This document shows positions 2,784 to 39,900 of a stretch of 56,125 bases of DNA, piece after piece. The translations under genes and the position numbers were made by a program. The notes beneath the pieces were generated by a model. The model made no database searches. It was not told where the DNA came from and was given only the letters and a program-made list of their open reading frames with translations. How positions within the stretch are numbered: position 1 is the stretch's first letter; each line of letters begins with the position of its first letter. The stretch lies in IMG/VR virus record IMGVR_UViG_3300045988_020923, positions 1-56,125 of that record; one strand, 5' to 3'. This DNA comes from a virus.

Positions 2784-2798
2784 GGAGGTAAACATTCT

Positions 2799-3236
2799 AT
2801 GAGTACTGCTATCTCCGGTCTGAACACTACCCTTTACTGTGGCGAAAGCGCAACAACTCTGAAGAAGCTGTGCGACATTAAGGATGTGCCCGACCTGATC
2901 TCCGACCCGAACCTTCTGGATGCAACCACCCTGTCTGATGGTATGCAGAAGCAGATTTTTGGCATTGTTCAGGCTGATACCAAAGCCTTTACTGCAAACT
3001 ACAACAAGACCGACTACGCCGCCGTCAAGGCTGCTGGTTATGACGATACCTCTGAGAGCAACGTGGACAAGTACTACGCCCTGAAAATGCAGGACGGTTC
3101 CGGCTTCACTTGGCAGGGTATGCATCAGGTCGGTCTGTCCGGTTTTGGCGTGGACGAGGTCGTGGAAATGACCATCAATTGCATCTTCCACTCTACCCCG
3201 AAGTTCAGCGAGAGCCTGACCATTAACGGCGGCTAA
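2799..3236 (+). CDS. Major tail protein
   Basis: 145 aa, AGGAGG RBS, located immediately upstream of the chaperone pair and tape measure. Confidence 0.6.
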   Translation: MSTAISGLNTTLYCGESATTLKKLCDIKDVPDLISDPNLLDATTLSDGMQKQIFGIVQADTKAFTANYNKTDYAAVKAAGYDDTSESNVDKYYALKMQDGSGFTWQGMHQVGLSGFGVDEVVEMTINCIFHSTPKFSESLTINGG

Positions 3237-3320
3237 ACCGCACAAATCGAATCAATCAAAACGAGCAGAACTGAACAACGGATTTGGTTCTGCTCCTATT
3301 TATAAAGGAGAGCATTTATT

Positions 3321-3668
3321 ATGGCTGCTAAGGTTATCAACTTTCATTCCCCCGATGGCAAGAACACTTACGAGCTGACTTTCACCCGCGAGAGCGCCGA
3401 AGCCACTGAACGCAACGGCTTCCAGATCTACGAGTTCTCTAACGGCATCAACCCCATCAAGAACACCTCTGCTCTGTTCTATGGTGCATTCATTGCCCGC
3501 AACAAGGGCATCAAGCGCAAGCTGGTCGATGATATGCTTGCGCACATCGAGGACAAGGAAGGTCTTATGGCCGCCCTGATGGAGATGTACGCGGATTCTA
3601 TCAAGGCTCTGGTTGCCACCGATGAAGAGGACAAGACCGCAAAAAACGCAACGTGGGAGATTGTGTAA
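3321..3668 (+). CDS. Tail assembly chaperone (gpG-like)
   Basis: 115 aa acidic protein directly upstream of tape measure; contains slippery site near its 3' end. Confidence 0.7.
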   Translation: MAAKVINFHSPDGKNTYELTFTRESAEATERNGFQIYEFSNGINPIKNTSALFYGAFIARNKGIKRKLVDDMLAHIEDKEGLMAALMEMYADSIKALVATDEEDKTAKNATWEIV

Positions 3669-4078
3669 CCTCACAGTCTCAGGGATCGGACAGCCATACA
3701 GAGCCATTCTCTGTGTCTAAGCTGTTCCACGATGTAGAAGCCTATTACATCTCCATTGGCATGACCTATGACCAGTTCTGGCGTGATGACGTCTGGCTGG
3801 CAAAGGTTTACCGAGACGCGGAAGAACTACGCGCCCGCAGAGCCAATGTTGAAGCGTGGAGAAATGGCTTCTACACGGAATCTGCGCTTTCCTCTACGGT
3901 TGGCAATATGTTCCGCAAGAAAGGGTCTAGCCCCATCAAGTACATGGATAGGCCGATTCCTCTCACCCAGAAAGAGCAGGACGAGTACGAATACCAACGC
4001 GCACTGGAAGCGCAGAAACGCATCAAGAGTGCAATGTTCTCTATGATGAATCAGAAGGACGGTGGTAGCAATGGCTGA
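3321..4078 (+). CDS. Tail assembly chaperone -1 frameshift fusion (gpGT-like)
   Basis: ORF 3653-4078 is in the -1 frame relative to 3321-3668, open through the slippery heptamer, and ends overlapping the tape measure start. Confidence 0.6.
3641..3647 (+). promoter_or_regulatory. Programmed -1 frameshift slippery heptamer A_AAA_AAC
   Basis: Zero-frame reading gcA AAA AAC (A-K-N); -1 frame stays open to 4078. Confidence 0.6.
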
Positions 4079-7000: not shown

Positions 7001-8282
7001 TCAGCTGGCAGATGAAAACTACGGTCTGGGCAATGGCTCTATCAGCCTTTCCGTTGACGCAAGCGGAAAGTCCATGATGGAAACCGCAAATGCGCTGAAA
7101 CGCACGATGCGCACCACCAATGATAGTTTCGGCGGTTGGTTCAAGAAGATGAAAACCGACTTGGGCGACTTCACAGAGGGCATCAATGCTATTACTAAGG
7201 CGGGTAAAGACATCTCAAACGGCTTTAAATCCTCCATTGACGCCCTTACCGCTGCATCGAAGTCCATCCTGAACACACATGATGGTTTTGTGAGCGCAGT
7301 CTCTGATATCCGGTCTTTTGTGAAAAAGAGCGTTGCGGAGATTGAAAACGAGTACCAGTATAACGGCTTCTTTGGCGCTGCTGGTCTTGCCATCCAAAAG
7401 GCGTTTGAGGGCGTGTACCTTGTTTTTGAAAAGGTTTCCACTGCTATCAAGAACATATCCGACACCATTGACAGCGTGAAGAACGTTATTACCACCTTTA
7501 ATAACCTGAAAACCAAAGTTGGCGAGGTCATCGACCAAGTTCCCGCTTTGAAACAGGCGTATGGTGGCCTGAAATCGTTCTTTAGTGACCTGTTCAACAA
7601 GGATAGCGGCATTGGCAAAATCGTGTCTGACGGCTTTGACTTCATCAAAACGAAAGCTGGAGACGTAGCAAACTGGTTTAAGGAAAAGCTCAACATTGGA
7701 AGTTCCGGCAGCTCTGCTGGTGGCGGTTCGTTAGGAGCTCTCGGAAGTACAGCGGCTTCTGGCGGCGCATTGTCGCATCTTGGTGCATACGGTGGAATAG
7801 GCGCTGGTGTTGGCCTTGGCCTTTCTGGTGGCATCCAGTGGTGGAAGGACATGATAGGCACTTGGGGTGATTCGGACAAGTCCGCAGGTACAAAAGTTCT
7901 TGAATCCATAAAACACACCCTTTGGGATTTGTCGCCTATTGGAGCACTCGTAAATCTTGGTAAAAAGATTTTTGGCTTTGCAAGTGGCGGTTTCCCCGAT
8001 GCCGGGCAGCTGTTCATCGCCAGAGAAGCCGGTGCAGAGATGGTCGGCTCTATGGGCGGGCACACAGCAGTTGCAAACAATGACCAAATCGTTGAGGGCA
8101 TCCGCGAAGGTGTTGAAGCTGCAATGGAGCGTCAGAATCAGCTTCTGCGCCGTCAGAACGAGCTGCTGCAGGCTCTGCTTGAGAAGGAAGGGAGCGCAGA
8201 GATCAACGTGTCCAGCTTCTATCAGGCAGTGAACAGAACGAACCAGCGCAACGGCAAAACAATTATCCCGGTAGGTACTTAA
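4071..8282 (+). CDS. Tail tape measure protein
   Basis: About 1404 aa (alternative GTG start at 4062), long helical and Gly-rich segments, canonical position after the G/GT chaperones. Confidence 0.9.
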   Translation: MADVDITSLSVEISAESQGAELNIDKLATAISNLRTKGSVGKVCTSLDKLSSSISALKQASAGISGLDKVTNFLNGISSVNTTAGVKGVNSVVNAIKKIPNAVSALNGVDFYSMSGSITQLTNALAPLSILDISGLKSLGSAFKAIGTVPDLTDKLKAADLDSFADSCQKISTALTPLASQLETVGNAFAKLPPQLSKVVTQANRVTAANERQKKSYMSLSSQMNSFMRNMAKLVSLKAIATYLGNAAEKFNSYYEAANLFGVSMKGLTGEASTFINKMETLLGIDPTEAMNNMATIQGLTTSFGLASDKAYVLSKNLTQLGYDLASLKNIPVAESFTKIQAAISGELEPIRRLGVDISNARLQQELLNLGYSQSVSTLSQADKAVLRYIAIMKQTTDAQGDFARTLSSPANMIRILQAQLNSLARAVGSLLYPALKSILPPLIAAVELVKELVTGIASMMGVKVEFPDFSSASDAVGGVTDAMDNTTKATGKAAKAFKNYIMGFDELNVIQKDNGSSGGSGSGVGAAGNILGDVDLSGYDMFKNYVGSSVDEIKAKLEKLLPLISGIAAGFATWAISNAVLTALEKIKGEGSLIEAVLKLWKNPIMAAAVAVGIIVARFVSLYQNSEKFRKGLERVRALVYLAAEGFKQGWNISLTDGKLGESIEYLKESLSNLGQSILNLLPESWQEGITSAFDSISKVVKKLDLDVWDLVTTLAGIGLIVSGHPVAGLAVIGFEAISVAVRGLGSENQKTAFGMETDWFNSFKSIGESVANFAAAAVTAIGNIINDIAIFVGWIKNGVSETDRLDLQMNGNFIENFVMGIAQTIHNIGVFVGWITSGVDEADRLAVAANGNFAEKFILLIADVINGIKEAVKWFGKLIEKISKFNPVSVGKNIIDGITKGIVGKKNVADDAVKVVTDGIQEEAQTELGIHSPSKVFKGYGVYLIEGLVNGVLATKDLAVKAIQSVSDAVKTIGSQLADENYGLGNGSISLSVDASGKSMMETANALKRTMRTTNDSFGGWFKKMKTDLGDFTEGINAITKAGKDISNGFKSSIDALTAASKSILNTHDGFVSAVSDIRSFVKKSVAEIENEYQYNGFFGAAGLAIQKAFEGVYLVFEKVSTAIKNISDTIDSVKNVITTFNNLKTKVGEVIDQVPALKQAYGGLKSFFSDLFNKDSGIGKIVSDGFDFIKTKAGDVANWFKEKLNIGSSGSSAGGGSLGALGSTAASGGALSHLGAYGGIGAGVGLGLSGGIQWWKDMIGTWGDSDKSAGTKVLESIKHTLWDLSPIGALVNLGKKIFGFASGGFPDAGQLFIAREAGAEMVGSMGGHTAVANNDQIVEGIREGVEAAMERQNQLLRRQNELLQALLEKEGSAEINVSSFYQAVNRTNQRNGKTIIPVGT

Positions 8283-8295
8283 AGGAGGGGCATTT

Positions 8296-8673
8296 ATGGA
8301 ACTTGACCAGTACAATCCGATTCGGAGCGTGGATGGGCAGTATCTTAAATGCCCCTCTTCTTATCAGTGGCGATTGCAGGACATCTCGGCATCCGATGCC
8401 GGACGTACAGAAGATAACAAGATGGACAAGAAACGTCTTGGCCAGTGCGTCAAGTTGGAACTGGAATGGAAGTACACCACGATAAAAGAAGCCGCTGCTA
8501 TCCTGAAAGCGTTCAACCCGGAATACATCAACGTTACCTATCTTGACGCAATGGCTGGCGATTGGAAAACCAGCGAGTTCTACGTTGGTGACCGTGCTGT
8601 TCCGATGTATAATTCGCGGATGAATCGCTGGGAAGGGATATCTTTTAACATCATTGAAAGGGCTGCACACTGA
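8296..8673 (+). CDS. Small tail component in the distal-tail (Dit) position
   Basis: 125 aa, GGAGG RBS, immediately after tape measure; much shorter than typical Dit, so function assigned by position only. Confidence 0.4.
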   Translation: MELDQYNPIRSVDGQYLKCPSSYQWRLQDISASDAGRTEDNKMDKKRLGQCVKLELEWKYTTIKEAAAILKAFNPEYINVTYLDAMAGDWKTSEFYVGDRAVPMYNSRMNRWEGISFNIIERAAH

Positions 8674-10688
8674 TGGTCAATGTATCGCAAGATATCATAA
8701 AATCCTTCAACGAGGGCAACAAACAGACTGCCCTTATTGAGGTTACTGCTGGCAGCAAGACGTTCACCATCACCGATGCAGATATCATTCAGGGCGGGTT
8801 GAAGATTGACCGGTACTGCGTGACCAACAGCAAAATCGAGGTCGGTTCTGCGGTTGCGTCTGAACTGTCCTTGAAGCTGCAAAACTACGATGGCAAGTTC
8901 AATGATGTTTCCTTTGAGGGCGCTGTCCTGAACGTCAAAATCGGCATCAAACTGTCCAGCGTTCTTGAGAGTGCAACGCTAGGCAAGGGCATTCTAAGAC
9001 GCATGATTCTTGGCTCTGCGTCCTCTGACCAAGACGTTGCGTATGTTCCCTGCGGTCTTTTTATCGTGGACACCCCGCCCCGCAAACTGAGCACAATAAG
9101 CATCTCTGCGCTGGACTACATGGTCTTGTTTGACCGCGAGGTGAACGCTTCTGCACTCTCCTTCCCTATCCACGTTGATGCGCTTATCCAGAAAATTTGC
9201 TCCATTTGCAACGTCACGCTTGCAACGGATGTTTCGGTGCTGCCGAACCACTATTTTAGCATCGGCGGTCTGCCTGATACAAACCAGACTTTGACCTACC
9301 GCCAGCTTTTGCAATGGTGTGCGCAGCTTACAGGCACTTGCGCATTCATGGATGGCAGCGGACGGCTTGTGCTGAAATGGTACGAGCAGACTGGTGTGAC
9401 CATCACCGCAAGTGAGCGTTATTCCAGCGATATGTTGGAGAACGACATCACCATTACAGGTTTTACCTGTGACGATGGCAACGGCAACACCTACCTGTCC
9501 GGCACAGCAGATTATACGCTTGACCTGAGTGACTGCGGCTTCCTGACCAACGCCTACGAGGGTGTTTTGAAGGAATTGCAAACCGCACGCGGCGGGTTTG
9601 CTTACCGTCCATACAGCGCCACCATCAAGTCTGCACCGTATCTGTTTCCGCTGGACATGATACGCTACAAGGACAAAGACGGCGTTGTACATGATACCAT
9701 TGTCACCAACGTTACGCTGGCTCTGAACTGCAACACAGCGATTTCCGGTGCGGGCGAGACGGTCACAAGTTTTTCTTACGCGCAGTCCACAAGCGGCGTT
9801 ACGAGCCAACAGGCTGCGACCGACAGAGCGAACCTTGAAAAGATAAACCAGACTGCTACGCAGACTAACCAGAACAAGCAGGACTTGACGCAGTTCAAGA
9901 CACAGTATTCTTCTGATTTCAAAAAGACGCAAGCTGAAATTGAATCCCGCGTCACGAAGGAAACGTACCAGACTGACATGGCTGGCGTTTCTACGCGCAT
10001 CGGTGCAGCGGAAACAAAGATTTCTCAGAACGCTGATGCTATTATTCTTCGTGCAACAAAAGAAGAGCTTTATAGCATGATAACGTTTACTCCTGAAAAT
10101 GGGTTGGTCGTCACTCGTAGCGACTGGGAAGGCAAAGTTCAAATCACCGGTCAAAACGTACAAGTCGTTCGCGGAAACAATAAAGTTATTATAAACAACA
10201 ATGGCATAGACATAACGAATGCCTATGGAAGTGTTTCTATATACAGCGGTGGCATATCTTTTCACGGCATTCGCAACAGTAAGATTTTTGAATGGCCTTA
10301 TGAAAAAGATTCTTATGGCAACCCGATAGGCGAATTCGCTGCGCAAACTACAAAAATCGATCTTTCGTCCTACTCGTCTGTAATGCTGGTCTATGACACG
10401 CATAAAGATGGAACATGGTTTTCAGGTGGCGGCGGTGCTGGTAGACTTACGGTCGTTCTTCCTGTTAATGGGCAAACGTACTCTTATGCTTATCCGTGGA
10501 ATACGGTACACTGGCGAAAGGTAACAGTATCATATAATGGTATCACTTTTGGAAATGGAAACGAGAGAACGTCCGACTATAAAAATAACGTTATAACTGG
10601 CGTGATACATTTGGAAGTTCCTATTTCTGATGGTGTTAATAAAAACGATAAGGTTTGCCGCCCGTTGGAACTATACGGTTTTATGTGA
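8673..10688 (+). CDS. Tail tip / Tal-like baseplate protein
   Basis: 671 aa; N-terminal region resembles prophage-tail (Tal) family, central coiled coil, C-terminal beta-rich domain; synteny. Confidence 0.55.
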   Translation: MVNVSQDIIKSFNEGNKQTALIEVTAGSKTFTITDADIIQGGLKIDRYCVTNSKIEVGSAVASELSLKLQNYDGKFNDVSFEGAVLNVKIGIKLSSVLESATLGKGILRRMILGSASSDQDVAYVPCGLFIVDTPPRKLSTISISALDYMVLFDREVNASALSFPIHVDALIQKICSICNVTLATDVSVLPNHYFSIGGLPDTNQTLTYRQLLQWCAQLTGTCAFMDGSGRLVLKWYEQTGVTITASERYSSDMLENDITITGFTCDDGNGNTYLSGTADYTLDLSDCGFLTNAYEGVLKELQTARGGFAYRPYSATIKSAPYLFPLDMIRYKDKDGVVHDTIVTNVTLALNCNTAISGAGETVTSFSYAQSTSGVTSQQAATDRANLEKINQTATQTNQNKQDLTQFKTQYSSDFKKTQAEIESRVTKETYQTDMAGVSTRIGAAETKISQNADAIILRATKEELYSMITFTPENGLVVTRSDWEGKVQITGQNVQVVRGNNKVIINNNGIDITNAYGSVSIYSGGISFHGIRNSKIFEWPYEKDSYGNPIGEFAAQTTKIDLSSYSSVMLVYDTHKDGTWFSGGGGAGRLTVVLPVNGQTYSYAYPWNTVHWRKVTVSYNGITFGNGNERTSDYKNNVITGVIHLEVPISDGVNKNDKVCRPLELYGFM

Positions 10689-10698
10689 GGTGGATATC

Positions 10699-10977
10699 AT
10701 GGAACATTTCAAGTTCAAGTGCAAAGTCGGATTGGATGGTCGATTGTATGGCGGCGGGTGGTGTCATGAAAGCGTTATTCCAAACCCGCTGCCGCCTGAT
10801 GAGATTCTGTTCGATGACCTGTCAGGAATGACAGAAGGGTTTTATACAGATTATTTGTGGGATGGAGCCAACTTGATATACAGCCCCGTACCAACAGCCG
10901 ATGAGCCTGTTAATACCGAAACGGAAACGGCTTTTACGCAAACCAACGAAAATGAAGAGGAGGTGACATATCAATGA
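10699..10977 (+). CDS. Hypothetical tail-module protein
   Basis: 92 aa from ATG 10699 with GAGGTGG RBS; overlaps next gene start. Confidence 0.4.
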   Translation: MEHFKFKCKVGLDGRLYGGGWCHESVIPNPLPPDEILFDDLSGMTEGFYTDYLWDGANLIYSPVPTADEPVNTETETAFTQTNENEEEVTYQ

Positions 10978-12065
10978 GCTATCAGAAGCAGAACTTTGCA
11001 AACGGCGAAGTGCTTACCGCTTCGCAGCTGAATCACATGGAGGACGGTATTGCAAAAGCTAATGAAAATACGAATTCTGGCTCCGGCCTGAGCGAGACCA
11101 GCAAGACCCTGCTGCTGTCCCTTTTGGAAAACGCCGCCTACACCAGCCCCTCCATGCAGGCGCAGCTGAACGCCTTGCGCACCGAGTGGAGCAGCGGCGG
11201 TGGCAGCGGTGGCAGTGACAAGATTCCGGTGCAGAGCATCAGCCTGAGCAGCAGCGCCCTGACCCTGAACGAGGGCGAGAGCAAGACCCTGACCGTTACC
11301 GTGCTGCCTGCGGATGCCACCTATGGCGATCTTGTTCTTAACTTTAGTCCGGGAAGTTTCGTTTCTAATTCAGGCGTACCTGTTAAGCTATCTAAAAATG
11401 TGTACAGATACACTTTGAAAGCTTTAAAGGCGGGCACTTGCACGGTGACCGCCACCGCAGGCGGCAAGAGCGCCAGCTGCACCGTGACGGTGGAAGCAGC
11501 CGAGACGGCACAGCTGATCTACACCCTGCCCGCCGAAACGGAGCTGACCAACGGCTTTGACACCGGTCTGAAGCTGCTGGAGCACGCATCCACCGAGTCG
11601 CCGCAGTACACCATTCTGGTGGACGCAAAGGCGGGGGACAACTTTGACGCAAGCACATGGCCTGCTTTCCTGCACTGCCTGACCGAGACCGGCAGCACCG
11701 CCAACCTGCCCGGCTTCAACTCCACCAGCAGTCCGCTGAATAATAAGACGGAGTTCGCCTACTACAACTACGGCGGCGTTACCCTGTCGGACAGCATCGA
11801 GCACCTCAAGACCCGCACGCGGTATGTGGTGCAGCTTGATGGTAAAAAGTACCGCGGCGGCAGCACCTACTGCCCGATGACCGGGTGGCTGACCAGCAAC
11901 AGTGCGATCATCGATGTGCCCCAGACCTTCCTGATCGGTGCGGCACAGAGCGCGGACGGCAGCAAAAAGCAGCAGTTCTGGTTGGGCACGCTGTATCAGT
12001 GTAAGGTGTACAAGGGGCTGCTGAGCGATGAGAAAGTGAACGAGTACATCGAAAAGGGGTGGTAA
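10974..12065 (+). CDS. Tail fibre / receptor-binding protein (Big_2 plus LamG-like C-terminus)
   Basis: N-terminal NFANGEVLTASQLNHMEDGI fibre motif; IPVQSISLSSSALTLNEGESKTLTVTVLPADAT Big_2 motif; C-terminal FLIGAAQ...LYQCKVYKGLLSDEKV LamG-like pattern. Confidence 0.65.
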   Translation: MSYQKQNFANGEVLTASQLNHMEDGIAKANENTNSGSGLSETSKTLLLSLLENAAYTSPSMQAQLNALRTEWSSGGGSGGSDKIPVQSISLSSSALTLNEGESKTLTVTVLPADATYGDLVLNFSPGSFVSNSGVPVKLSKNVYRYTLKALKAGTCTVTATAGGKSASCTVTVEAAETAQLIYTLPAETELTNGFDTGLKLLEHASTESPQYTILVDAKAGDNFDASTWPAFLHCLTETGSTANLPGFNSTSSPLNNKTEFAYYNYGGVTLSDSIEHLKTRTRYVVQLDGKKYRGGSTYCPMTGWLTSNSAIIDVPQTFLIGAAQSADGSKKQQFWLGTLYQCKVYKGLLSDEKVNEYIEKGW

Positions 12066-12066
12066 A

Positions 12067-12744
12067 ATGGAAGGATACAGTATCAGCGGCCAGATCATCA
12101 GCCCGCTGGCGGGAAAAGCACTGTACATTGCAGGCGACAGCATCGCCTATGGCAAGGGCAGCGCGGGCGGCTACGGCAAGTGCATTGCAGACCGGTACGG
12201 AATGCAGCTGATCAACGAAGCGGTGGACGGTGCAACGCTGGCGACACTGGTCCCTGACAATGTGAACGGCGGTTACCGCACCAGCATCGGCATGACCGTG
12301 AAAAGCTCTACGGAGCTGGAAAAGGCAGACTATATCCTGCTGGAGGGCGGCGTAAATGATGCGTGGAACAAGGCCCCTGTGGGCACCTTGACGGATGGTT
12401 TTGCCGCCACCTACGATGAAACGACCATGACCGGCGCACTGGAAAAAATGCTGGAGTATCTGGCGAAAAACTACAGCGACAAGCGCGTGGCCTATGTGTT
12501 CCCCCACGGCGGGCTGTTCGGCAGCAGCGAAAACTGGTACAAGACCTACAAGCCCGCCATCCTTGCAGCGCTGCAGAAATGGGGCGTGCCCTACGTGGAC
12601 ATTGCAGAAAGCACCCCGCCCATGGGCGGCCACGGCATCAGCGGGCTGAGCGGCAAGTACACCGGCGATGGCACACACCCCAACAAAGCAGGCTACGAGC
12701 GGTTTTACATGGAGCCCATCGCTGCGCTGCTGAAGCGTATGTAA
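12067..12744 (+). CDS. SGNH/GDSL-family hydrolase (esterase)
   Basis: Blocks GDSIAYG (I), GGVNDAW (III) and DGTHPN (V) all present. Confidence 0.8.
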   Translation: MEGYSISGQIISPLAGKALYIAGDSIAYGKGSAGGYGKCIADRYGMQLINEAVDGATLATLVPDNVNGGYRTSIGMTVKSSTELEKADYILLEGGVNDAWNKAPVGTLTDGFAATYDETTMTGALEKMLEYLAKNYSDKRVAYVFPHGGLFGSSENWYKTYKPAILAALQKWGVPYVDIAESTPPMGGHGISGLSGKYTGDGTHPNKAGYERFYMEPIAALLKRM

Positions 12745-12765
12745 AGAAAAGAAAGGACTGATATC

Positions 12766-13443
12766 ATGCTTCCTATCATGGACGTATCCCGCTGGCAGGG
12801 GCGCATCAACTGGGACAAGGTCAAGGCAAGCGGCCTTGTCTCCGGTGTGATGCTGCGGGCGCTGGGCAACAGCCCGAAAGACGCACCCAGCAAGCCGTAC
12901 ATCGACCCCACATTTGAGCGCAACTACGCCGAGTGCCAGCGACTGGGCATCCCCTGCGGCGTGTACTACTACTGCAAGGCGGTCAACACGGCAGAGGCTG
13001 ACGCAGAGCTTGCCCTGCTGCGCAAGGTGCTGACCGGCAAGACAGTGCAGCTGCCGGTGGCGGTTGACATCGAGGACGGCTATGTGCAAGCACCGCTTGA
13101 CAAGCAGACCCTGACGGACATTGCCGCTCATGCGCTGGGCACGGTGGAGCGCTGGGGCTTTTACGCCATGCTGTACACCGGGCTATATTTTGGCGAAACC
13201 AACCTGTACATGACCGGTGCGGCGATCAAGCCTTATGACGTGTGGCTGGCAGCCTACCGCAGCAAAAAGCCTGAACCGGGCTGGCCGTTCGGCTTGTGGC
13301 AGTACACCAGCAAGGGCAAGATTCCCGGCGTTGTGGACGCAATACCGGGCAAGATTTCCGGCGTGGACTTGTCTGTGCCCTACAAGGACTACGCTAAAAT
13401 CATTGCTAAGAAGGGTCTGACCCGTCTTCGGGAGGGCACATGA
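12766..13443 (+). CDS. GH25 muramidase endolysin (catalytic domain only)
   Basis: DVSRWQGRINWDKVKASG, YYYCKA, VAVDIED and WQYTS motifs typical of GH25 lysozymes; no obvious cell-wall-binding domain in 225 aa. Confidence 0.85.
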   Translation: MLPIMDVSRWQGRINWDKVKASGLVSGVMLRALGNSPKDAPSKPYIDPTFERNYAECQRLGIPCGVYYYCKAVNTAEADAELALLRKVLTGKTVQLPVAVDIEDGYVQAPLDKQTLTDIAAHALGTVERWGFYAMLYTGLYFGETNLYMTGAAIKPYDVWLAAYRSKKPEPGWPFGLWQYTSKGKIPGVVDAIPGKISGVDLSVPYKDYAKIIAKKGLTRLREGT

Positions 13444-14613: not shown

Positions 14614-14776
14614 TTGTGGTAAAATAACATCAACAAATCCACCCGGCCTCTCGAAGAAGCACAAGAGGGCGGATATCTGAAATCCCCTGCTTTGCCGAAG
14701 CCCTGCGTGCCACGCGGGGTACTTTGTAGGCAAAGTGTGGGATTTTGTTTTATTTGCACTAGTTTTGTCGAAACCC

Positions 14777-18027: not shown

Positions 18028-18077
18028 GAAAAACCCCTGTGCAGCCTTTATGGGTTGCGCAGGGGTTTCTTTTGTTA
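18028..18077. terminator. Bidirectional rho-independent terminator between convergent genes
   Basis: 16-bp stem AAACCCCTGTGCAGCC/GGTTGCGCAGGGGTTT flanked by an A-run and a T-run. Confidence 0.7.
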
Positions 18078-18542
18078 TTCATTCTCATCAGAAAGACGGT
18101 TAACCCAAGCATTTAGCACCTCTCTGTACACCGTCATATTCGGACAGAAGTAGCTGTTTGTAAATACCGGCGTATCATCATTACACAGAATTCTCATAAC
18201 AGCAGCGCACACGGCTGCGGATCTTGATACGCCAGCACCACAATTCACGCAGAACCAATCCGTCTTATCTTCTTCATAGTTATCCAGAACAAAATTCACA
18301 ATATTCTTAGCTTGAATATCAGTGATACAGGTGCCTTCTAAATCAGTAGTGCAATCATCAAACTTCAGCGGTAGAAAAGTAATATTGCCCTCACACTTAT
18401 TAAAATCAATATGATGACCATTAGCTTCAGTGATTGAGATAAACCGAATCCGTTCAAAATGTGGCTGTCGGATAAAGTCTTCTGCATCTTCTGCACTCAT
18501 CACCGAAAATTTCCATTTTCTTCGATACATAGTAACAATCAT
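18075..18542 (-). CDS. Cys-based protein phosphatase (dual-specificity/PTP-like, CX5R)
   Basis: VNCGAGVSRSAAV matches the C-X5-R-S P-loop signature; GGAGG RBS; AT-rich local composition. Confidence 0.75.
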   Translation of the reverse strand: MIVTMYRRKWKFSVMSAEDAEDFIRQPHFERIRFISITEANGHHIDFNKCEGNITFLPLKFDDCTTDLEGTCITDIQAKNIVNFVLDNYEEDKTDWFCVNCGAGVSRSAAVCAAVMRILCNDDTPVFTNSYFCPNMTVYREVLNAWVNRLSDENE

Positions 18543-18562
18543 TTAGTTTTCCTCCAAAGAAT

Positions 18563-18733
18563 TTAGGTTTTATCAATAAATGATAAATCCATATCCTTAA
18601 ACTCAACTACTTCACTATCTTTTATAGGACAATTTTCGTATATTTTTATTGCATCGTCTACCAACGGATGCTTTAGCAAATATAGCAGTCTTTTCATTCC
18701 TTCTTTTGAGATGTTATACTCTTCTCGACTCAT
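18563..18733 (-). CDS. Small hypothetical protein (56 aa)
   Basis: ORF below the track cutoff, read by hand (MSREEYNISKEGMKRLLYLLKHP...); weak AAGGTG RBS. Confidence 0.35.
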   Translation of the reverse strand: MSREEYNISKEGMKRLLYLLKHPLVDDAIKIYENCPIKDSEVVEFKDMDLSFIDKT

Positions 18734-18938
18734 CTTAATCACCTTTTTTCAAAATGCAAACGGATTACTATTCGCTGCTATTGTCAGTGCCACATTAAAA
18801 GCAAACATTATAAACGCGGCCACTGCGACTACACAGGGGTTTACTATTGAAAAAGCTAGGTGGGGTGACAATTCCCACATCTCCTAACGATGGGCGATAG
18901 CTGCCTGTTCTATTCTCTAGCGTTTCATTGCTTAAATT

Positions 18939-19181
18939 TTAATACCTCGTGTTCCACCGCTTTACAAGCGTTGCTCGTCCATCATCTAAAACTTCAAGAA
19001 CGCCATCGTAATTAAAACTGTAATATGCTTCTTCTTTCATCATATTGCATTTACATTTCTGACAAAAAATAGTCCAAACAGTTTTATAAGACATTCCGCT
19101 ATTGCTTTTACGCAATCCATCATGGCTTATTCTAACATTTTCTCCGCAAAACGGACATGGTTTCAATTCGCGTTCTTCCAT
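18939..19181 (-). CDS. Lar-family restriction alleviation-like protein
   Basis: The LKPCPFCG start and C-terminal RWNTR are the hallmark ends of the Lar family. Confidence 0.7.
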   Translation of the reverse strand: MEERELKPCPFCGENVRISHDGLRKSNSGMSYKTVWTIFCQKCKCNMMKEEAYYSFNYDGVLEVLDDGRATLVKRWNTRY

Positions 19182-19184
19182 ACG

Positions 19185-19757
19185 TCAATCCTCCAAGAAA
19201 TCCTCCAACTCAATCTTCCCATCTGCCGCTGCAACTGCCAGAGCGTACACGAACTGTCCAATCGTCATGCCGTGTCGCCTTGCTTCACGGTTGATATACT
19301 TGCGCTCTTCCTCGCTCATAAGGATGGTAATGCGCTTTGAACGCTTACCGTCACCGCTTGCAACACCCTGATGCGATACTGGCATCGGAATTTTTTTCTT
19401 TGTCAAGCCAGCTTCGGCAAGTGCGCTGGGAACATCGCCTTGTTCGATAAGACGTTGAACTTCTTTCGCCTGTTTCAGCTTCTTTGGCTTACTTTCGCTT
19501 ACTACGGCATTGTTTGGCTGTGTTTCGCTGTCTTTGGCTTGCTTCGGCTTAATACTGCTTAACTGTGTTTCACTGGGCTGTGTATGGCTGTCTGTGGCTT
19601 CACTGGGCTTAATCTGTGCTTGCTCGGCTTCGTTTGGCTTTGCTTGGCTTACTTCTTCTTCCTTCGGCTCACTTCGGCTTAATGGCTGCTCCGAAAAAAT
19701 AGGCTGAAAATCAAACCCGCCAAGCAAGCCTGTGGATTTTTTGCTGGTTGATTTCAT
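19185..19757 (-). CDS. Ribbon-helix-helix ParG-like centromere-binding protein candidate
   Basis: C-terminal KRITILMSEEERKYINREARRHGMTIGQFVYALAV is RHH-like. It lies downstream of parA. ATG 19757 is coupled (ATGA) to the upstream gene. The N-terminal half is a 10-aa periodic repeat. Confidence 0.6.
   Translation of the reverse strand: MKSTSKKSTGLLGGFDFQPIFSEQPLSRSEPKEEEVSQAKPNEAEQAQIKPSEATDSHTQPSETQLSSIKPKQAKDSETQPNNAVVSESKPKKLKQAKEVQRLIEQGDVPSALAEAGLTKKKIPMPVSHQGVASGDGKRSKRITILMSEEERKYINREARRHGMTIGQFVYALAVAAADGKIELEDFLED
19461..19690. repeat. About 23 tandem copies of a 10-bp unit (plus-strand consensus TNTTTGGCTT) inside the ParG-like ORF
   Basis: 13 of 23 consecutive 10-nt blocks carry GGCT at the identical phase; the others carry CGCT, AGCT or TGCT variants. 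Confidence 0.8.
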
Positions 19758-20149
19758 TCTTCTTCCTCCCAATCTTCATCAAGGTCAGGAACGGTCGGCA
19801 ACGGCATCCAGTGAGTTATATTATGCGGCTTTCCGCTTTTGTCCCGCCATTCCTTAAAATCTTCTTCATAGCCTACAATTTCTACATCGTATTCGTCTTT
19901 GCTAAACCCGATAACGTATGGGTTTAGTTCATCTGGCATTTCATCTTCTGATTTCGCCCATTGATTATTTGCAAGCTCTTTCTGCCACTTTTTGCAATAC
20001 TTTTCAGCTAGATACCACTGAGAATGAAACGCCATTTCTTTCTCTTTATCGGAAAGGTCATTAAATGAAAAACCAAAATTGATAACGTAGACTTGCTCCG
20101 TGTCATCAACACAAGTTGCATTCAAAAGATGTGGGTACAAATCGCTCAT
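19754..20149 (-). CDS. Hypothetical protein with DUF551-like C-terminus
   Basis: 131 aa; NITHWMPLPTVPD motif; coupled to parA (overlapping stop and start). Confidence 0.5.
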   Translation of the reverse strand: MSDLYPHLLNATCVDDTEQVYVINFGFSFNDLSDKEKEMAFHSQWYLAEKYCKKWQKELANNQWAKSEDEMPDELNPYVIGFSKDEYDVEIVGYEEDFKEWRDKSGKPHNITHWMPLPTVPDLDEDWEEEE

Positions 20150-20916
20150 TTTTCTTCCCCCTTTACAATTTTCTGTGCCAACGCCTTGAAATCCTCTGCA
20201 CTGGTACTCTTTGCCGTGTCACCGCTAAACAAGCTGTGCCGTTCTGCCTGTGCCTTACGAACGCCCATAGACGGTCTAATCTTCACATCCAGCAGGGTTG
20301 TTCCCATGCTCTGCGCAATCACAGGAAGCTGCTCTACAACCTCTTTGGACAGGTTCTCGCGGCTCTTGTACTGGTTCAGAAGCAGACCTTCAATCTTCAA
20401 AGTCGGATTGAAGTATCTGCGGACATCGCCGATAGTCTGCGAAAGCTGGCTCAAACCAGCCAGTGCGTATCGGTCTGCTGTGATGGGAACGATGATGCTG
20501 TTGGCGGCGATCAGTGCGTTCACAAGCGCAAGACCAAGCTGCGGTGGAGTGTCCAGCACAATGTAATCGTACTGCCCGGACACGCTTTCAAGGGCTTCTC
20601 GCAGCCGGAAGTTCTTGCCCATGTCCCGGACAAGCTGCTCGTCAATGTCCTTCAATGCGTTGTCGGACGGAAGAATGTCACCAGCTTCACAGTGCTGGAT
20701 TCCTTCTTCGACTGTTCCTTGCCGGGTCATCACATCAAACAGGGTGCATACGTCCTCTGTCTGTGCGCCGTATGTGTCCGTCGCGTTGCACTGGGCATCG
20801 CAGTCCACCAGTAGGACTTTCTTGCCAAGCAGCTGCAATGCACCAGCCAGACAGGTGCTTGTGGTGGTCTTTCCTGTGCCGCCTTTCTGGTTGGCGACAG
20901 CTATGATTTTTGCCAT
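20146..20916 (-). CDS. parA: ParA-family partition ATPase
   Basis: Deviant Walker A motif (KGGTGKTTTS in IAVANQKGGTGKTTTS); 256 aa typical length. Confidence 0.9.
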   Translation of the reverse strand: MAKIIAVANQKGGTGKTTTSTCLAGALQLLGKKVLLVDCDAQCNATDTYGAQTEDVCTLFDVMTRQGTVEEGIQHCEAGDILPSDNALKDIDEQLVRDMGKNFRLREALESVSGQYDYIVLDTPPQLGLALVNALIAANSIIVPITADRYALAGLSQLSQTIGDVRRYFNPTLKIEGLLLNQYKSRENLSKEVVEQLPVIAQSMGTTLLDVKIRPSMGVRKAQAERHSLFSGDTAKSTSAEDFKALAQKIVKGEEK

Positions 20917-20931
20917 TTTATCACTCTTTCT

Positions 20932-21123
20932 TTATTCTTTCACTGGTTCAGGCATCGGCATCCAATGGGTGAATTTCTGATATTTTGTCCTCCACCAACA
21001 TTTCCCATTCCATTGAGCCGTAATCGTATGCGTTCCACAGAAATAAGTCCCATTAGAAACGCAAGACACAAGATACGTTCCCGGTTCTTCTGGTAGCCTG
21101 TCTTTCACACTAATCCATTCCAT
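20932..21123 (-). CDS. DUF551-like protein
   Basis: 63 aa from MEWISVKDRLPEE with AAAGGAG RBS; C-terminal FTHWMPMPEP. Confidence 0.6.
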   Translation of the reverse strand: MEWISVKDRLPEEPGTYLVSCVSNGTYFCGTHTITAQWNGKCWWRTKYQKFTHWMPMPEPVKE

Positions 21124-21148
21124 TCTTTCTCCTTTTTGCATCATCTGC

Positions 21149-22261
21149 TCAATGTGCTGTATCTGACCACTTTTGCAATGCGTCAATCTCATAGAAAGCC
21201 GGAAGATACTCTTCAATCGCGCCGTCTTTCTTCAAGCTACCAATCAGATACCGCTTCGGGTGGTCAGGCCAAGGGTCACGGTTGATTGAAAGAATATCCG
21301 CACACGCAGCCTTTACGATGTCATAGACCGCATCTCTCCGCTTTGGCAGCTTGATAGATGGGTGCTCTTCCATCATCTTTACTTCGACAACCTTTGCAAC
21401 TTCGATGCACTCTTGAACGGATAGAGCATCGCACACAGACCAGTCGTACCCTTCGTATCCGCTTGTGCGGGACTTTCTGGCGGCTTTTTTGATTTCCGGC
21501 TTAGAATTATCCGCCTCACAATTAACCTCGCTAGAATCGGCATCTATGACGGGCTGCTTGGATTTGTACCCGAATCGAAACTCAACTGCTACTACCTTTC
21601 GCCCTGTGCAAATCTTCTCAAAGTCAACAACAATGTCTGAAACATTGCTGATCTCTTCCACTGCTGGTTCAAGAACTCTGCGGCGTAAAGCCCGGAAGTC
21701 GTCATAACTTGCATCGTTTGCCCCCAAGTGGTCACGCAGCTGTTTCAAACCAATCTTGTTCGATGTTAGAGAGCGATTCATCCAATCTCGAATCATGCTG
21801 TACATCAGAATAGATGCTTGCTGCTTCATCCCGATTGTATAGCGCAGACGGTATTTGACATAGCCGCTTCTTGCAATGTCGAAAAACACAGGCCGCAAGT
21901 CAGGATTACAGTTGATTGAAACGTCATAGGACAAGGATTCTCGATTGAACTTGACCTCTGCCTTTGTGAACAGCGGATACATCACATATTCTGTTCCATC
22001 TGCATTCAGTGGTACTGAAACCACGTTGCCCAAAAAGTGCTTAACCTGCGACTTCAAGTTCTTTGAATTGAGCTTCAAATCCAGCAGCTTGCAATATTCA
22101 GCCAGCGTAAACGACACGTTAGAGCTTTCGGGGTCTCTCGGATTGATACGGCTCAGATAGACCTCAAGCAGCCGAAGCTCGCCTGCTGTGTAGTCCGTAA
22201 ACTTCGCCCAAACCAATGCCTTGCTCTTTTCGACAAGGTTGTTTCCTGTTAATTCTGGCAT
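21149..22261 (-). CDS. Plasmid-type replication initiator (Rep_3/RepB-like)
   Basis: The N-terminal NNLVEKSKALVWAKFTDYTAGELRLLEVYLSRI pattern is typical of iteron-binding initiators; iterons lie immediately upstream. Confidence 0.75.
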   Translation of the reverse strand: MPELTGNNLVEKSKALVWAKFTDYTAGELRLLEVYLSRINPRDPESSNVSFTLAEYCKLLDLKLNSKNLKSQVKHFLGNVVSVPLNADGTEYVMYPLFTKAEVKFNRESLSYDVSINCNPDLRPVFFDIARSGYVKYRLRYTIGMKQQASILMYSMIRDWMNRSLTSNKIGLKQLRDHLGANDASYDDFRALRRRVLEPAVEEISNVSDIVVDFEKICTGRKVVAVEFRFGYKSKQPVIDADSSEVNCEADNSKPEIKKAARKSRTSGYEGYDWSVCDALSVQECIEVAKVVEVKMMEEHPSIKLPKRRDAVYDIVKAACADILSINRDPWPDHPKRYLIGSLKKDGAIEEYLPAFYEIDALQKWSDTAH

Positions 22262-22286
22262 TGCATCACCTCATTTCTTCTACCCT

Positions 22287-22315
22287 ATTATACCACTGTA
22301 TCGTGTACACGTCAA
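22287..22315 (-). promoter_or_regulatory. rep promoter (TTGACG-17-TATAAT, extended TG) with an iteron half-site in the spacer
   Basis: The minus strand reads TTGACGtgtacacgatacagtggTATAAT; the spacer contains TGTACACGAT. Confidence 0.55.
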
Positions 22316-22350
22316 TGATTCTGTACACAATTATTTTTCAACAATCGACT

Positions 22351-22455
22351 TCCACATTCTGTACACGATACTCCACTTTTTGTACACGATACCCTCCACT
22401 TCTTGTACACGTTCCTCCACTTTATGTACACAATGCTCCACTTTTTGTACACGTT
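22351..22455. repeat. Five direct iterons (TCCACTTTTTGTACACGNT), spaced 21/23/21/21 bp
   Basis: Copies start at 22351, 22372, 22395, 22416 and 22437. Confidence 0.85.
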
Positions 22456-22505
22456 CTTACTATATATATAAACAAGAGATAAACAAGAGATAAATAATCA
22501 TCATC
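22456..22505. other. AT-rich segment with AAACAAGAGATAAACAAGAGATAAA direct repeat (possible unwinding element)
   Basis: ctatatatataaacaagagataaacaagagataaataatc lies immediately after the iterons. Confidence 0.4.
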
Positions 22506-22630
22506 AAATAGTGACGACGATACATTTTCAACAATTTCTTCTCTTCAATGGGAAGATTGTGGAAAACGACAACTTCTTTTGCTGAATAAGAAACGTCCAT
22601 CAAGCCCTATAATCTATCTGACGGTTCTAT

Positions 22631-22819
22631 CGTGTACAGAAAATGGAGTGCAATCACACCAATAGGGGACGAATTGACAAGTCATGCTTTGATGAACGAA
22701 AATTTCACGCTAGTTCGTTAATTACATCCGAAAAAATCCACTATTTACGATTCTATGGGGGACAAAATGACAACCCAAAATCATATTTATAACAGGCCTA
22801 TTGTGTACAAAAAGTGGAG
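22631..22819. repeat. Two outlying inverted iteron copies plus two GGGGACNAAWTGACAA direct repeats
   Basis: Inverted iterons at 22631-22648 and 22802-22819; GGGGAC repeats at 22665-22680 and 22758-22773. Confidence 0.65.
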
Positions 22820-22861: not shown

Positions 22862-23455
22862 TCACCCGCTTATATTATTGGGATTCACAGTATAGGAATC
22901 GTTGGACTTCATAGCCGCTTCTGTTCCAGCGTCCTGCGCCTGATAGAGAATTTCCATCTTTGGGGCGGTTCCGTTCGGGTCTGGGTCTGTTCCGGTAGCC
23001 TGTGCCATCTCATAGCTACCAGACACCATCCGGCAGACAGAAACCCTGTCCTTCAGCGGTGTGTGGAGGTTTGCCAGAATCTCCGTCAGTACGCCGATGT
23101 GGTCTGAGCCGTGATCTCCGTACCTGATATACAGCAAGGCATCTATCTCATAGGAGGAGCACTCCATCATAGCATCTATGAGAATCCGCCGTTTCTCCAG
23201 ATCGGAAAGGCCGTCTTCCAAGTGTTCCAGCAGCCCTGGGTGAATGCAAGCGTCCATGTATCGAGCCACCGATACGCCGCAGCAGGTGAACCAGCGCATA
23301 GCCATCGGAAGGGAAATAGCTGCCAGACCTTGCTCCCAATTTGCTATCGTGCCACGATTCACGCCCATCCGTGCCGCCAATTTCTGCTGGCTCAATCCGG
23401 AACGCATTCGAGCTATTTCTAATGCTTTAGCTGTTCTTACTAAATATTCATCCAT
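22862..23455 (-). CDS. XRE-family HTH regulator with C-terminal domain (repressor-like)
   Basis: The MRSGLSQQKLAARMGVNRGTIANWEQG HTH motif; divergent from a plus-strand gene set. Confidence 0.75.
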   Translation of the reverse strand: MDEYLVRTAKALEIARMRSGLSQQKLAARMGVNRGTIANWEQGLAAISLPMAMRWFTCCGVSVARYMDACIHPGLLEHLEDGLSDLEKRRILIDAMMECSSYEIDALLYIRYGDHGSDHIGVLTEILANLHTPLKDRVSVCRMVSGSYEMAQATGTDPDPNGTAPKMEILYQAQDAGTEAAMKSNDSYTVNPNNISG

Positions 23456-29261: not shown

Positions 29262-29329
29262 TTTTGCACAGCCAAGTTAAGCCAAAGTAAGAACAATGAA
29301 GCCTAATGAAGCCGAAGAAAGGAAAGAAA

Positions 29330-29701
29330 ATGGGCAAATACAAGAAAGAAATCAGACATTGTACGAGATGCAACAAGCCATTTTCGGCATACCCGGAAAA
29401 CGATGAAAAGCTTTGCGCAAATTGCAAAGAAGCTGACTACGAGAAAATGCTTAAGCTGAATGGATATGCGCTGAAGCATCGTCTGGTAAGAAGCGTGGGA
29501 GACTCTTTTATTCCTAATGCGTTAAGCGCCACTCGGAGGGACGATACCGTCTCCATTCAAAAAACGTGCCGTGACTGCGGCAAAGTGTTCGAGATTACTT
29601 GTGCAGAGCGCTTTTTCTTCGAATCACATAACATGGCACTGCCCAAGCGTTGCCCGGCTTGCCGTAAAGCGAGAAAAGAAGCGAGGAAGGAGAACAACTG
29701 A
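29330..29701 (+). CDS. Zinc-ribbon domain protein
   Basis: CTRCN...CANC; C-terminal CRDCGKVFEITCAERFFFESHNMALPKRCPACRK resembles the 'probable zinc-ribbon' family. Confidence 0.5.
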   Translation: MGKYKKEIRHCTRCNKPFSAYPENDEKLCANCKEADYEKMLKLNGYALKHRLVRSVGDSFIPNALSATRRDDTVSIQKTCRDCGKVFEITCAERFFFESHNMALPKRCPACRKARKEARKENN

Positions 29702-30309
29702 TGGATAACAGCAAAATCCATGAAGCTCTAATGGCTGTTCAGTCAGAGTTAAAAGCCCCGAAGGGGCAGATGAACAAGTTCGGTGGATACAAGTACCGCT
29801 CGTGCGAGGACATTCTCGAAGCGGTCAAGCCCATCTTGAAAGCGCATAACCTTGTGCTACGGCTTTCCGACAAGCCTGTTATTGTTGACAGTTGGCACTA
29901 CATCGAAGTCACTGCAACAGTTGAATCGCAGGATGGTGCCACCTACACGGTGACTGCATACGCTCGTGAGCCTGAGTTTAAGAAAGGCATGGACGATTCG
30001 CAAATTACTGGCACTGCAAGCAGCTACGCTAGAAAGTATGCACTGAACGGTCTGTTCTGCATTGACGATACAAAAGACGCTGACACGGACGAGTATCAAA
30101 AACAGACCGCAAGCAGGGCAAACAAGCCTGCGCAGAAGCAAACGGAAACGGACGCCATTCCTCCGTGCGCTTGCTGCGGAAAGCAGTTGCAGCCTATTCA
30201 GTACAACAACCGCACCGTCACTCCGCTGGAAACTGCAAGAAGCACAAAGAAACGATTTGGGCGCGTCCTGTGTTGGGACTGTGCTCAGAAACAGCCGAAG
30301 GAGGGCTAA
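29701..30309 (+). CDS. ERF-family single-strand annealing recombinase with C-terminal zinc ribbon
   Basis: The AVQSELKAPKGQMNKFGGYKYRSCEDILEAVKPILKAHNL pattern is typical of ERF; adjacent to ssb. Confidence 0.7.
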   Translation: MDNSKIHEALMAVQSELKAPKGQMNKFGGYKYRSCEDILEAVKPILKAHNLVLRLSDKPVIVDSWHYIEVTATVESQDGATYTVTAYAREPEFKKGMDDSQITGTASSYARKYALNGLFCIDDTKDADTDEYQKQTASRANKPAQKQTETDAIPPCACCGKQLQPIQYNNRTVTPLETARSTKKRFGRVLCWDCAQKQPKEG

Positions 30310-30312
30310 ATA

Positions 30313-30732
30313 ATGCTCAACTCTATTGCAATTCAGGGTCGCCTGGTTCACACGCCAGAAGCTAAGGTCACGAAGTCCGGCAAGGATGTTTGCACGTTCA
30401 GCATTGCTTGCGACCGTCAGAGCTGCGGTCAGAAGGAAACCGACTTCTTCAACTGCACTGCATTTGGTAATACGGCACTGTTCGTTTCCAAGTGGTTCCA
30501 GAAGGGCAGCCTGATTCTGGTGACTGGTAGCATCCAGACCCGGAAGTATACCGACAAGCAGGGAAACAACCGCACCGCAACGGAAATCATGGCGAACAAG
30601 GTTGACTTCTGCGGTGGCAAATCGGACAGCAAGCCCGCTGATCGGGCGCAGGATGCACCACAGAACTGCTCTCAGGGCAACACGGACGACTTCTCTGTGA
30701 TTGACGACAGTTCTGATCTCCCTTTTAACTAA
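30313..30732 (+). CDS. ssb: Single-stranded DNA-binding protein
   Basis: OB-fold N-terminus (NSIAIQGRLVHTPE...) and acidic DDSSDLPF tail. Confidence 0.9.
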   Translation: MLNSIAIQGRLVHTPEAKVTKSGKDVCTFSIACDRQSCGQKETDFFNCTAFGNTALFVSKWFQKGSLILVTGSIQTRKYTDKQGNNRTATEIMANKVDFCGGKSDSKPADRAQDAPQNCSQGNTDDFSVIDDSSDLPFN

Positions 30733-39638: not shown

Positions 39639-39898
39639 CAGAACTCAAGAGATGTCCGTTTTGCGGCAAGAACGCAGTTTACATTGGCGTGTGCGATGAT
39701 GAAGGCAACTTTCATGGGCGTTTGGGATGCGAGTACGAACAAGACCCGTGGAGCGGGCTTTCTTATGACTTGCATCACGAAGGATGGGGCAAATGTATCC
39801 TTTGCACGGATGGAGACAATCAAAGCATGGGTGGCGCACTGTTTGACACGGCAGAGGATGCTATCGAAGCATGGAACAAACGCTACAAAGAGGACTGA
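39635..39898 (+). CDS. Lar-family restriction alleviation-like protein
   Basis: LKRCPFCGKNA start and AIEAWNKRY end. Confidence 0.7.
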   Translation: MTELKRCPFCGKNAVYIGVCDDEGNFHGRLGCEYEQDPWSGLSYDLHHEGWGKCILCTDGDNQSMGGALFDTAEDAIEAWNKRYKED

Positions 39899-39900
39899 GT

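Follow-up and report, generated by a model that had tools for sequence, protein, structure and literature searches.

The DNA analysed here is a virus record of 56,125 nucleotides (IMG/VR record IMGVR_UViG_3300045988_020923, taken at its full length and called the window below), and it is read as the entire genome of a temperate phage, siphovirus-like and hosted by a gut Firmicute, which is kept as a low-copy plasmid in lysogeny, a reading to which a probability of about 0.75 is attached. The window begins and ends with the same 55 nt and is therefore a circular assembly, of 56,070 bp. This 56-kb circle from the human gut combines the genes of a tailed temperate phage with a plasmid-type origin and a partition system, without an integrase, and it most likely persists as a plasmid. 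The same lifestyle had been proposed in an initial annotation made from the letters of the sequence, and the present analysis supports that proposal with a virion and lysis gene set, a repressor codirectional with a Rep_3/iteron replicon and a pair of genes for ParA and a putative ribbon-helix-helix (RHH) protein, the absence of a tyrosine integrase, and a family of more than 400 related contigs of 50-62 kb.

All 108 called genes were scanned against Pfam, and the key genes were also scanned against PHROGs and NCBIfam. A phage-plasmid in the sense of Pfeifer et al. 2021 has a complete phage gene set together with plasmid replication and/or partition genes, and it has no integration module. Genes for packaging, capsid, tail, lysis and lysogeny control are all present in the window, genes for both plasmid replication and partition accompany them, and no Phage_integrase domain was found in the 108 called genes or in 7 ambiguous long open reading frames (ORFs), which bears out the earlier statement that a tyrosine integrase is absent; the only recombinase is a short serine enzyme.

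The rep-par transcription unit and its origin

The plasmid functions are encoded by one minus-strand unit with a strong sigma-70-type promoter, which specifies three proteins: an initiator of the Rep_3 family, a small ParA and a partner of 190 aa. The initiator gene, rep (21149-22261, minus strand, 370 aa), encodes WH1 and WH2 domains at residues 10-230 and an extra C-terminal domain of about 110 aa. Profile comparison matched its product to the Pfam families Rep3_N (2.9e-17, 63.8 bits, cut-off 22.4) and Rep3_C (1.2e-15, 57.9 bits, cut-off 21.1) and to PHROG 4402, “replication initiation protein”, with weak NCBIfam matches to RepM and RepE, so the Rep_3-like initiator that had been proposed at this position is confirmed by matches above the cut-offs.

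Upstream of rep the DNA is arranged as in classical iteron origins, with a DnaA box, an AT-rich stretch, five phased iterons and a promoter that contains a half-iteron. An iteron cluster is expected to consist of at least three direct repeats, about two helical turns apart and adjoining rep; the window has five direct copies of the 17-mer GTGTACAAAAAGTGGAG, termed type A below, at 22350-22452 on the minus strand with spacings of 21/23/21/21 nt, and this sequence has 7 matches in the whole window, compared to 0.13 expected by chance. The type-A origin iterons are kept in 79 of 81 A-type relatives. Next to them lies a stretch, conserved across lineages, with two TTATCTCTTGT repeats (22453-22520), which is the presumed unwinding element and contains 73.5% A+T, compared to 51% for the window; the regularly spaced iterons and AT-rich segment which the initial annotation had placed upstream of rep are thus both substantiated. 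The DnaA-box-like sequence TTTTCCACA (22558-22566, minus strand) fits TTWTNCACA as read from the sequence, and the same position in the alignment of lineages L106 and L110 is occupied by TTATCCACA; the AT-rich stretch and DnaA box expected beside an iteron cluster are identified by consensus match only. On their other side the iterons are bordered by the near-consensus promoter TTGACG-17 nt-TATAAT with an upstream TG (22315-22287, minus strand), which scores 11/12 and is the best sigma-70-type match in 6 kb, in agreement with the promoter assigned earlier to this unit. Its spacer carries GTGTACAC, a half-site of the window's own iteron, which is likely to be an auto-repression operator.

A bidirectional terminator with a 17-bp stem (18031-18068) closes both this unit and the plus-strand late genes. 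Between the promoter and this terminator no minus-strand terminator with a G+C-rich stem was found, three weak sites (22521, 22238 and 21650) having 3 G-C pairs each, so that transcription probably extends from 22287 to about 18075, slightly past the left edge of the region considered in the initial annotation. Its distal genes (18075-19181, minus strand) comprise a Lar-like gene (18939-19181), small ORFs and the gene of a 155-aa protein. An Rfam skipping-rope RNA motif (18852-18924, minus strand; 53.4 bits, with a gathering score of 36.7) is found just downstream of the Lar-like gene.

The second plasmid function is partition. The parA gene (20146-20916, minus strand, 256 aa) encodes a small deviant-Walker-A ATPase which has no N-terminal helix-turn-helix (HTH) or extension: the AAA_31 match (8.5e-54) starts at residue 2, CbiA is also matched, KGGTGKT occupies residues 11-17, and the protein belongs to PHROG 164, “ParA-like partition protein”. 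The deviant-Walker ParA recognised earlier is thus upheld by profile comparison. The candidate centromere-binding partner (19185-19757, minus strand, 190 aa) consists of a Lys-rich, invariant N-terminal peptide, MKSTSKKSTGLLGGFDFQP, a variable and disordered repeat linker, and a conserved C-terminus, KRITILMSEEERKYINREARRHGMTIGQFVYALAV, which follows the strand-helix-turn-helix pattern of RHH proteins and is under strong purifying selection (pN/pS 0.06). An hhalign comparison with CopG gave E 2.5e-4 and 43% probability, and a single-sequence AF2 model, of low confidence (pLDDT 58) and too poor for a fold search, has residues 1-90 disordered and helices at 149-161 and 166-178. Among the profile results, the best RHH match, to NikA-like proteins (1.6e-5, 25.4 bits), is below the cut-off of 27, those to TacA1 and DUF6290 are lower still, and the profile of the RHH domain matched no PDB sequence significantly. 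An RHH fold for the partner is therefore a modest, weakly supported assignment.

Stronger than this sequence support is the genomic context, because the adjacency of parA and the partner gene holds across lineages. The order HTH - rep - parA - partner is kept in lineages whose Rep is 50-69% identical; in L110 the partner gene starts at the parA stop codon, and elsewhere one small variable ORF lies between the two. In the window the variable inserts are two DUF551 genes, one between rep and parA (20932-21216, minus strand) and one between parA and the partner gene (19754-20149, minus strand), and these are missing or placed differently in L086, L106 and L110. The label “ParG-like” in the initial annotation is consequently a fair functional guess as far as the layout beside parA is concerned, for a protein which at 190 aa is 2.5 times longer than ParG and whose RHH profile matches are sub-threshold. 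The accompanying assignment to partition type Ib likewise stands in part: the small ParA without HTH agrees with it, and the RHH assignment of the partner is weak and no centromere repeats lie upstream of parA. The gap between parA and the gene before it is 15 nt in four of five lineages (55 nt in L086), and there is overlap between the partner gene and its next neighbour, so that there is almost no non-coding DNA in the module and the usual type Ib centromere position upstream of parA is absent. A related ParA with an RHH partner of the same layout is also found on plasmid-like elements of Clostridium sp. CAG:964 and of an Oscillospiraceae isolate (L090, 9900-11141; L091, 13756-14997), where a 413-aa ORF whose sequence resembles a tyrosine recombinase stands beside the pair.

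The layout suggests how the element may be maintained. Rep monomers on the five iterons would open the AT-rich stretch jointly with the DnaA of the host, binding of Rep to the promoter spacer would repress the synthesis of Rep itself, and two inverted iterons 180-350 nt upstream may pair with the origin iterons by handcuffing or looping and thereby limit the copy number. The partner would bind the centromere through a C-terminal RHH dimer, and its Lys-rich N-terminal peptide would stimulate ParA, so that the copies are moved apart over the nucleoid. A CI-like repressor, encoded codirectionally just upstream, would keep the lytic genes off, and upon induction the plus-strand early genes (ERF, SSB, DUF6291 and DnaB) would take over replication, with headful packaging to follow.

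Phage genes, relatives and the case for an episome

The phage part of the circle, in which a complete virion and a lysis cassette had been claimed, does contain a complete siphovirus-type virion and lysis set, with capsid, portal, terminase, tail and endolysin genes, all on the plus strand. They include the major capsid protein, of the Phage_cap_E family (56-1135), the major tail protein (2799-3236), a 1406-aa tape measure (4062-8282) with no sheath gene, further tail proteins and a GDSL esterase (within 56-13443), a GH25 endolysin (12766-13443) followed by small membrane proteins, the large terminase (50867-52588) and an SPP1-type portal (53495-55051). The early genes ERF, SSB, DUF6291 and DnaB lie at 29701-30732 and 39871-41801 (plus strand), the latter segment encoding DUF6291 and a DnaB-type helicase (DnaB_C 3.9e-50; PHROG 19). 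Of the “organizer plus DnaB” replication module described earlier, the helicase is thus verified and the organizer is not, since the ORF at 39871-40581 matches only DUF6291 and PHROG entries of unknown function. GC skew tracks gene orientation and is uninformative on the origin. A tRNA-Met (CAT) gene is present between the terminase and portal genes (53010-53087, plus strand), and an Rfam DUF3800-VIII RNA motif (14681-14744, plus strand; 75.5 bits, with a gathering score of 40.2) follows the lysis genes.

Lysogeny control is represented by a CI-like HTH_3 repressor (22862-23455, minus strand), a second HTH protein and two antirepressors (Bro-N/KilAC and AntA/ORF6C). The repressor gene is on the same strand as rep and directly upstream of the origin, and its position is the same in relatives. 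This arrangement bears on a different reading of the replicon, in which Rep and its iterons are an ordinary lytic origin, or the sole phage origin, like lambda O and ori-lambda, with ParA an accessory and the phage virulent, pseudolysogenic or in a carrier state. Rep_3-like initiators do occur in phage PHROG families, the genome has no recognisable second initiator (DUF6291 being without known function), and the exchangeable C-terminal domain of Rep could conceivably recruit the phage DnaB. However, rep shares its strand and its side with the CI-like repressor and is opposed to the early lytic genes; ParA and its conserved partner are tightly linked to rep in all lineages; a lytic origin has no need of extra inverted iterons or a half-site in the promoter, which belong to copy-number control; and the repressor and two antirepressors together indicate a temperate phage. 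A lytic role for the replicon is for these reasons considered improbable.

The plasmid reading also gains from the relatives of the window. Exact-peptide scans of IMG/VR gave 207 relatives of Rep and at least 424 of the partner protein, on contigs mostly of 50-62 kb with permuted ends, in which the gene lies at varying distances from the contig ends. In a collection of 15 billion proteins the longest contig is at most 62 kb for every listed Rep cluster representative at 50% identity or more, and the same holds for each of 120 listed partner clusters. No flanks indicating a host junction were found among the 207 loci (about 3 Mb, compared all against all), four private stretches of 1.5-2.2 kb all falling in the variable tail/lysis region, and no private host-like DNA was present in the 6-kb flanks of 40 recombinase loci or the 10-kb flanks of 80 rep loci. 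These contig sizes and the absence of host flanks suggest that the element does not integrate.

A further reading is that it does integrate, by means of its short serine recombinase, of a recombinase of the host or of an enzyme that escaped recognition, and that the plasmid genes serve only transiently. The serine recombinase (49483-50229, plus strand, 248 aa) has a Resolvase domain and part of a Recombinase domain; it best matches PHROG 95, “integrase”, and CcrB, as an integrating element would have it, and a few related contigs reach lengths of 70-115 kb. Large serine integrases are about 450-600 aa in length with a zinc-ribbon/coiled-coil part, and the window's enzyme has neither, aligning with positions 7-246 of the 542-position CcrB model and with 1-77 of the 102 positions, or three quarters, of Pfam Recombinase. 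The initial annotation was correct that the zinc-ribbon/coiled-coil part is missing, although its term “truncated” implies a decay which the relatives do not display: in 56 related loci the enzyme is nearly always 247-260 aa long (one has 281), down to 63% identity, and ends in ...EWVKGQHEPIL. The short length being conserved in close and distant relatives, this is a conserved short family rather than a decayed integrase, and as it occurs in about 57 contigs, compared to more than 400 for the family as a whole, it is an accessory gene. Together with the clean flanks and the absence of contigs above 62 kb among the listed Rep cluster representatives, these properties make integration a poorer account still than a lytic origin. 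A role in dimer resolution is plausible for the enzyme, because phage-plasmids, which are typically without integrases, can have recombinases that do this (PMC7969092). Res-like repeats were sought near the gene, and one weak pair only was found, the 16-nt direct repeats ACCCTAGTGATAGTAA (49283-49298) and ACCCTATTGATAGTAA (49386-49401), which are 103 nt apart in low-GC non-coding DNA just upstream of the gene and could be recombinase sites.

That assembly joined a plasmid artificially to a phage, as might be feared of a metagenome contig whose 55-nt end overlap is typical of a k-mer assembler, is effectively refuted by the recurrence of the same junctions and synteny in hundreds of independent assemblies from many samples and several sources.

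Several observations nevertheless weigh against persistence as a plasmid. A circular assembly is no proof of an episome, because a headful-packaging phage is equally expected to assemble as a circle. One member of an 88% Rep cluster is on a 77-kb contig, which was read only around the query gene, and the few related contigs of 70-115 kb were readable only over 3-10 kb around it; a single stored chunk of the 115-kb contig is collinear with the window, and the longer contigs may be concatemers, chimeras or host-flanked copies. No close relative of Rep was found in 185,579 species genomes, and the element is absent from all species-representative genomes. The window showed neither a toxin-antitoxin system nor any other addiction module. 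Episomal lysogeny is well supported but unproven.

More distant relatives throw light on the source of the replicon. In a profile scan of the species genomes the sole hits were Rep, alone or accompanied by ParA, on plasmid-like contigs of Oscillospiraceae, Faecalibacterium and Lachnospiraceae which share no phage genes with the window. Homologues about 40-43% identical to Rep (L082-L085 and L081, 10001-13200) are carried by Rep_3 + Mob_Pre plasmids of 3-6 kb, which are abundant in gut metagenomes (780 index blocks), and this distribution points to a plasmid origin of the phage replicon. One cluster of such homologues (P0039, 43% identical Rep, longest contig 358 kb) was considered as an integrated copy and rejected, since it belongs to these small plasmids. 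The 358-kb contig, from an NCBI metagenome-assembled genome, contains two Rep_3 + Mob_Pre units in tandem and is probably a misassembly.

Rep specificities and a candidate centromere

The origins of five lineages (the window, L086, L106, L109 and L110) were compared, and their order was found to be constant: the stop codon of the CI-like gene is followed by a control block of about 250 nt, the DnaA box, the AT-rich stretch, 4-5 iterons and the half-iteron promoter. The iterons themselves are of two types, A (GTGTACAAAAAGTGGAG) in the window and L109 and B (ATGGGGGACAAAAAGACAA) in L086, L106 and L110, and the half-site in the promoter changes with them, from GTGTACAC in type A to GTCCCCC in type B. 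Over residues 1-255, Rep identity is 99-100% in the A group of the window, 89-99% in the B group and 46-66% between groups, a figure in which L109 is included as a divergent third Rep lineage with A-like iterons. This co-variation of the iterons, the half-site and the DNA-binding half of Rep is the strongest evidence that the repeats are Rep sites. The C-terminal 110 residues of Rep follow a different tree, in which the window and L110 are 89% identical and L071 and L106 83%. Because the two parts of Rep have different closest relatives, the protein is a mosaic whose parts recombine independently, and the comparison indicates that the specificity part of Rep, its iterons and its operator are exchanged as one cassette, whose limits are the AT-rich stretch on one side and the beginning of the C-terminal domain on the other.

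The control block (22632-22819, plus strand) contains both types of site. In the window, two type-A iterons (22632-22648 and 22803-22819, plus strand), opposite in orientation to the origin iterons, surround two non-cognate type-B sites (22660-22678 and 22753-22771, plus strand), and the arrangement A1-B1-centre-B2-A2, with all four sites inverted relative to the origin iterons, recurs in all five lineages (in L086 at 7470-7700) regardless of the type of their own Rep. In the cross-lineage alignment the sites are islands of invariant columns amid diverged DNA. It is possible that the block is a universal control region which survives a swap of specificity, that its sites are decoys which titrate the Rep of a competitor, or that it is bound by some other protein.

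As the module has almost no non-coding DNA, its sole candidates for a centromere would be this block and an array of 21 consecutive 10-nt units, nnAAGCCnAA, which runs without indels through the linker codons of the partner gene (19473-19682, minus strand). In the array AAGCC is read in three frames (as Ser-Gln, Lys-Pro and Glu-Ala), which produces a 10-aa pseudo-repeat, and its autocorrelation peaks at lag 10 (0.53-0.60) and not at lag 30. Among 133 distinct relatives, the variability of alignment columns depends on their position in the 10-nt unit with codon position fixed (F = 5.4, permutation p = 2e-4), and other periods give F < 2.7. Synonymous diversity is 0.18 in the array, compared to 0.29-0.32 in its flanks, and non-synonymous diversity is higher in the array, with a pN/pS of 0.37 as opposed to 0.06-0.15 in the flanks. 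Where the length varies, it does so by 30 or 60 nt. A second type of partner (L086 and L168-L172), with the strand RVSVPMS in place of RITILMS and a ParA that is still 89% identical, has in the same place about 17 units of 9 nt, nrnCAGAnT, of which the third codon is A-N-T/G in nearly every unit whatever amino acid is encoded. These patterns suggest that it is the DNA, and not the protein, that is constrained here.

Known RHH centromere-binding proteins recognise phased short repeats (PMC3130281 and PMC9499535), and it is tentatively suggested that the array is an intragenic centromere of the partition system. This suggestion faces the objections that only two independent array types are available and that no phased DNA array is present in the related ParA/RHH pairs of L090 and L091 on other elements, so that the array is not general to this partner family. 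An intergenic mini-array of 5-6 AAGCC units in 10-nt phase (29269-29326, plus strand) is conserved immediately before the early recombination genes, and the genes that follow it differ from relative to relative. It was considered as a second binding site that co-varies with the RHH type and was rejected, being unchanged in the lineage with the other RHH type, which is a further point against the array as centromere.

Two linked proposals follow, both doubtful as yet: that the centromere may lie inside the coding sequence of its own binding protein, and that the origin may be built for the swapping of specificity, with a shared block that retains sites of both types. If the latter were true, the block would allow control to continue after a swap, or would titrate the Rep of a competing relative.

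Relation to known systems and significance

The closest functional parallel is P1, an enterobacterial myovirus in which RepA and oriR are accompanied by incC and incA iterons and in which ParA-ParB-parS, Cre-lox and a separate lytic replicon are found. The window resembles P1 as a temperate tailed phage that would be kept as a low-copy plasmid, with an origin and extra control iterons, a presumably autoregulated rep, ParA-type partition, a site-specific recombinase which possibly resolves dimers, and separate early or lytic replication genes. The partition system of P1, however, is of type Ia, with a large HTH ParA, an HTH ParB and a downstream parS, while that of the window has a small ParA and an RHH-like partner; the control iterons of the window are upstream and inverted, no addiction module is seen, and any relationship is at the superfamily level at most.

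With the Rep_3/RepE iteron plasmids (F RepE-oriS, pPS10, pSC101 and RK2 oriV) the replicon shares a WH1-WH2 initiator, iterons in a phase of about 22 nt beside an AT-rich stretch and DnaA box, a half-iteron in the rep promoter and further iterons outside the origin cluster; it differs from them in its extra, recombining C-terminal domain of about 110 aa, in its two-specificity block and in being carried by a phage. The partition genes are similar to ParF-ParG-parH of TP228 and delta-omega of pSM19035 in that the gene after that of a small deviant-Walker-A ParA encodes a protein whose N-terminal tail is flexible and whose C-terminal domain is, here putatively, of the RHH type, although the partner here has 190 aa with a 70-residue repeat linker, compared to about 70-76 aa for ParG and omega, and although the pair lies inside the rep operon and lacks the intergenic DNA in front of parA that contains centromere and promoter in those systems. 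Their centromeres are arrays of short repeats (PMC3130281 and PMC9499535).

Among cultured phages, the episomal phages of Firmicutes (those like phiCD38-2 of Clostridioides difficile, and the IEBH community of Pfeifer et al. 2021) are likewise siphoviruses with parA and no integrase, ParA homologues occur in 20 Clostridium phage records, and Clostridia and Bacillus often harbour phage-plasmids (PMC7969092). Judged by the terminase, the nearest cultured phage is Clostridium phage Maintenon of [Clostridium] innocuum, at 52%. None of the cultured phages in the collection has a close Rep, the only cultured phage there with a detectable relative being the known phage-plasmid Burkholderia KS14, at 26% identity.

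The phage-plasmid lifestyle is already well known and is common in Clostridia and in the gut, and the central claim therefore adds a member to an established class rather than a principle. With more than 400 virome contigs and no cultured relative that has a close Rep, the family would be a good model for plasmid-type lysogeny in gut Firmicutes, and tools which predict lifestyle from integrases will probably misread such phages as virulent. Its two Rep/iteron specificities, its mosaic Rep and its two types of RHH protein and array make it a ready system for the study of incompatibility switching and centromere evolution.

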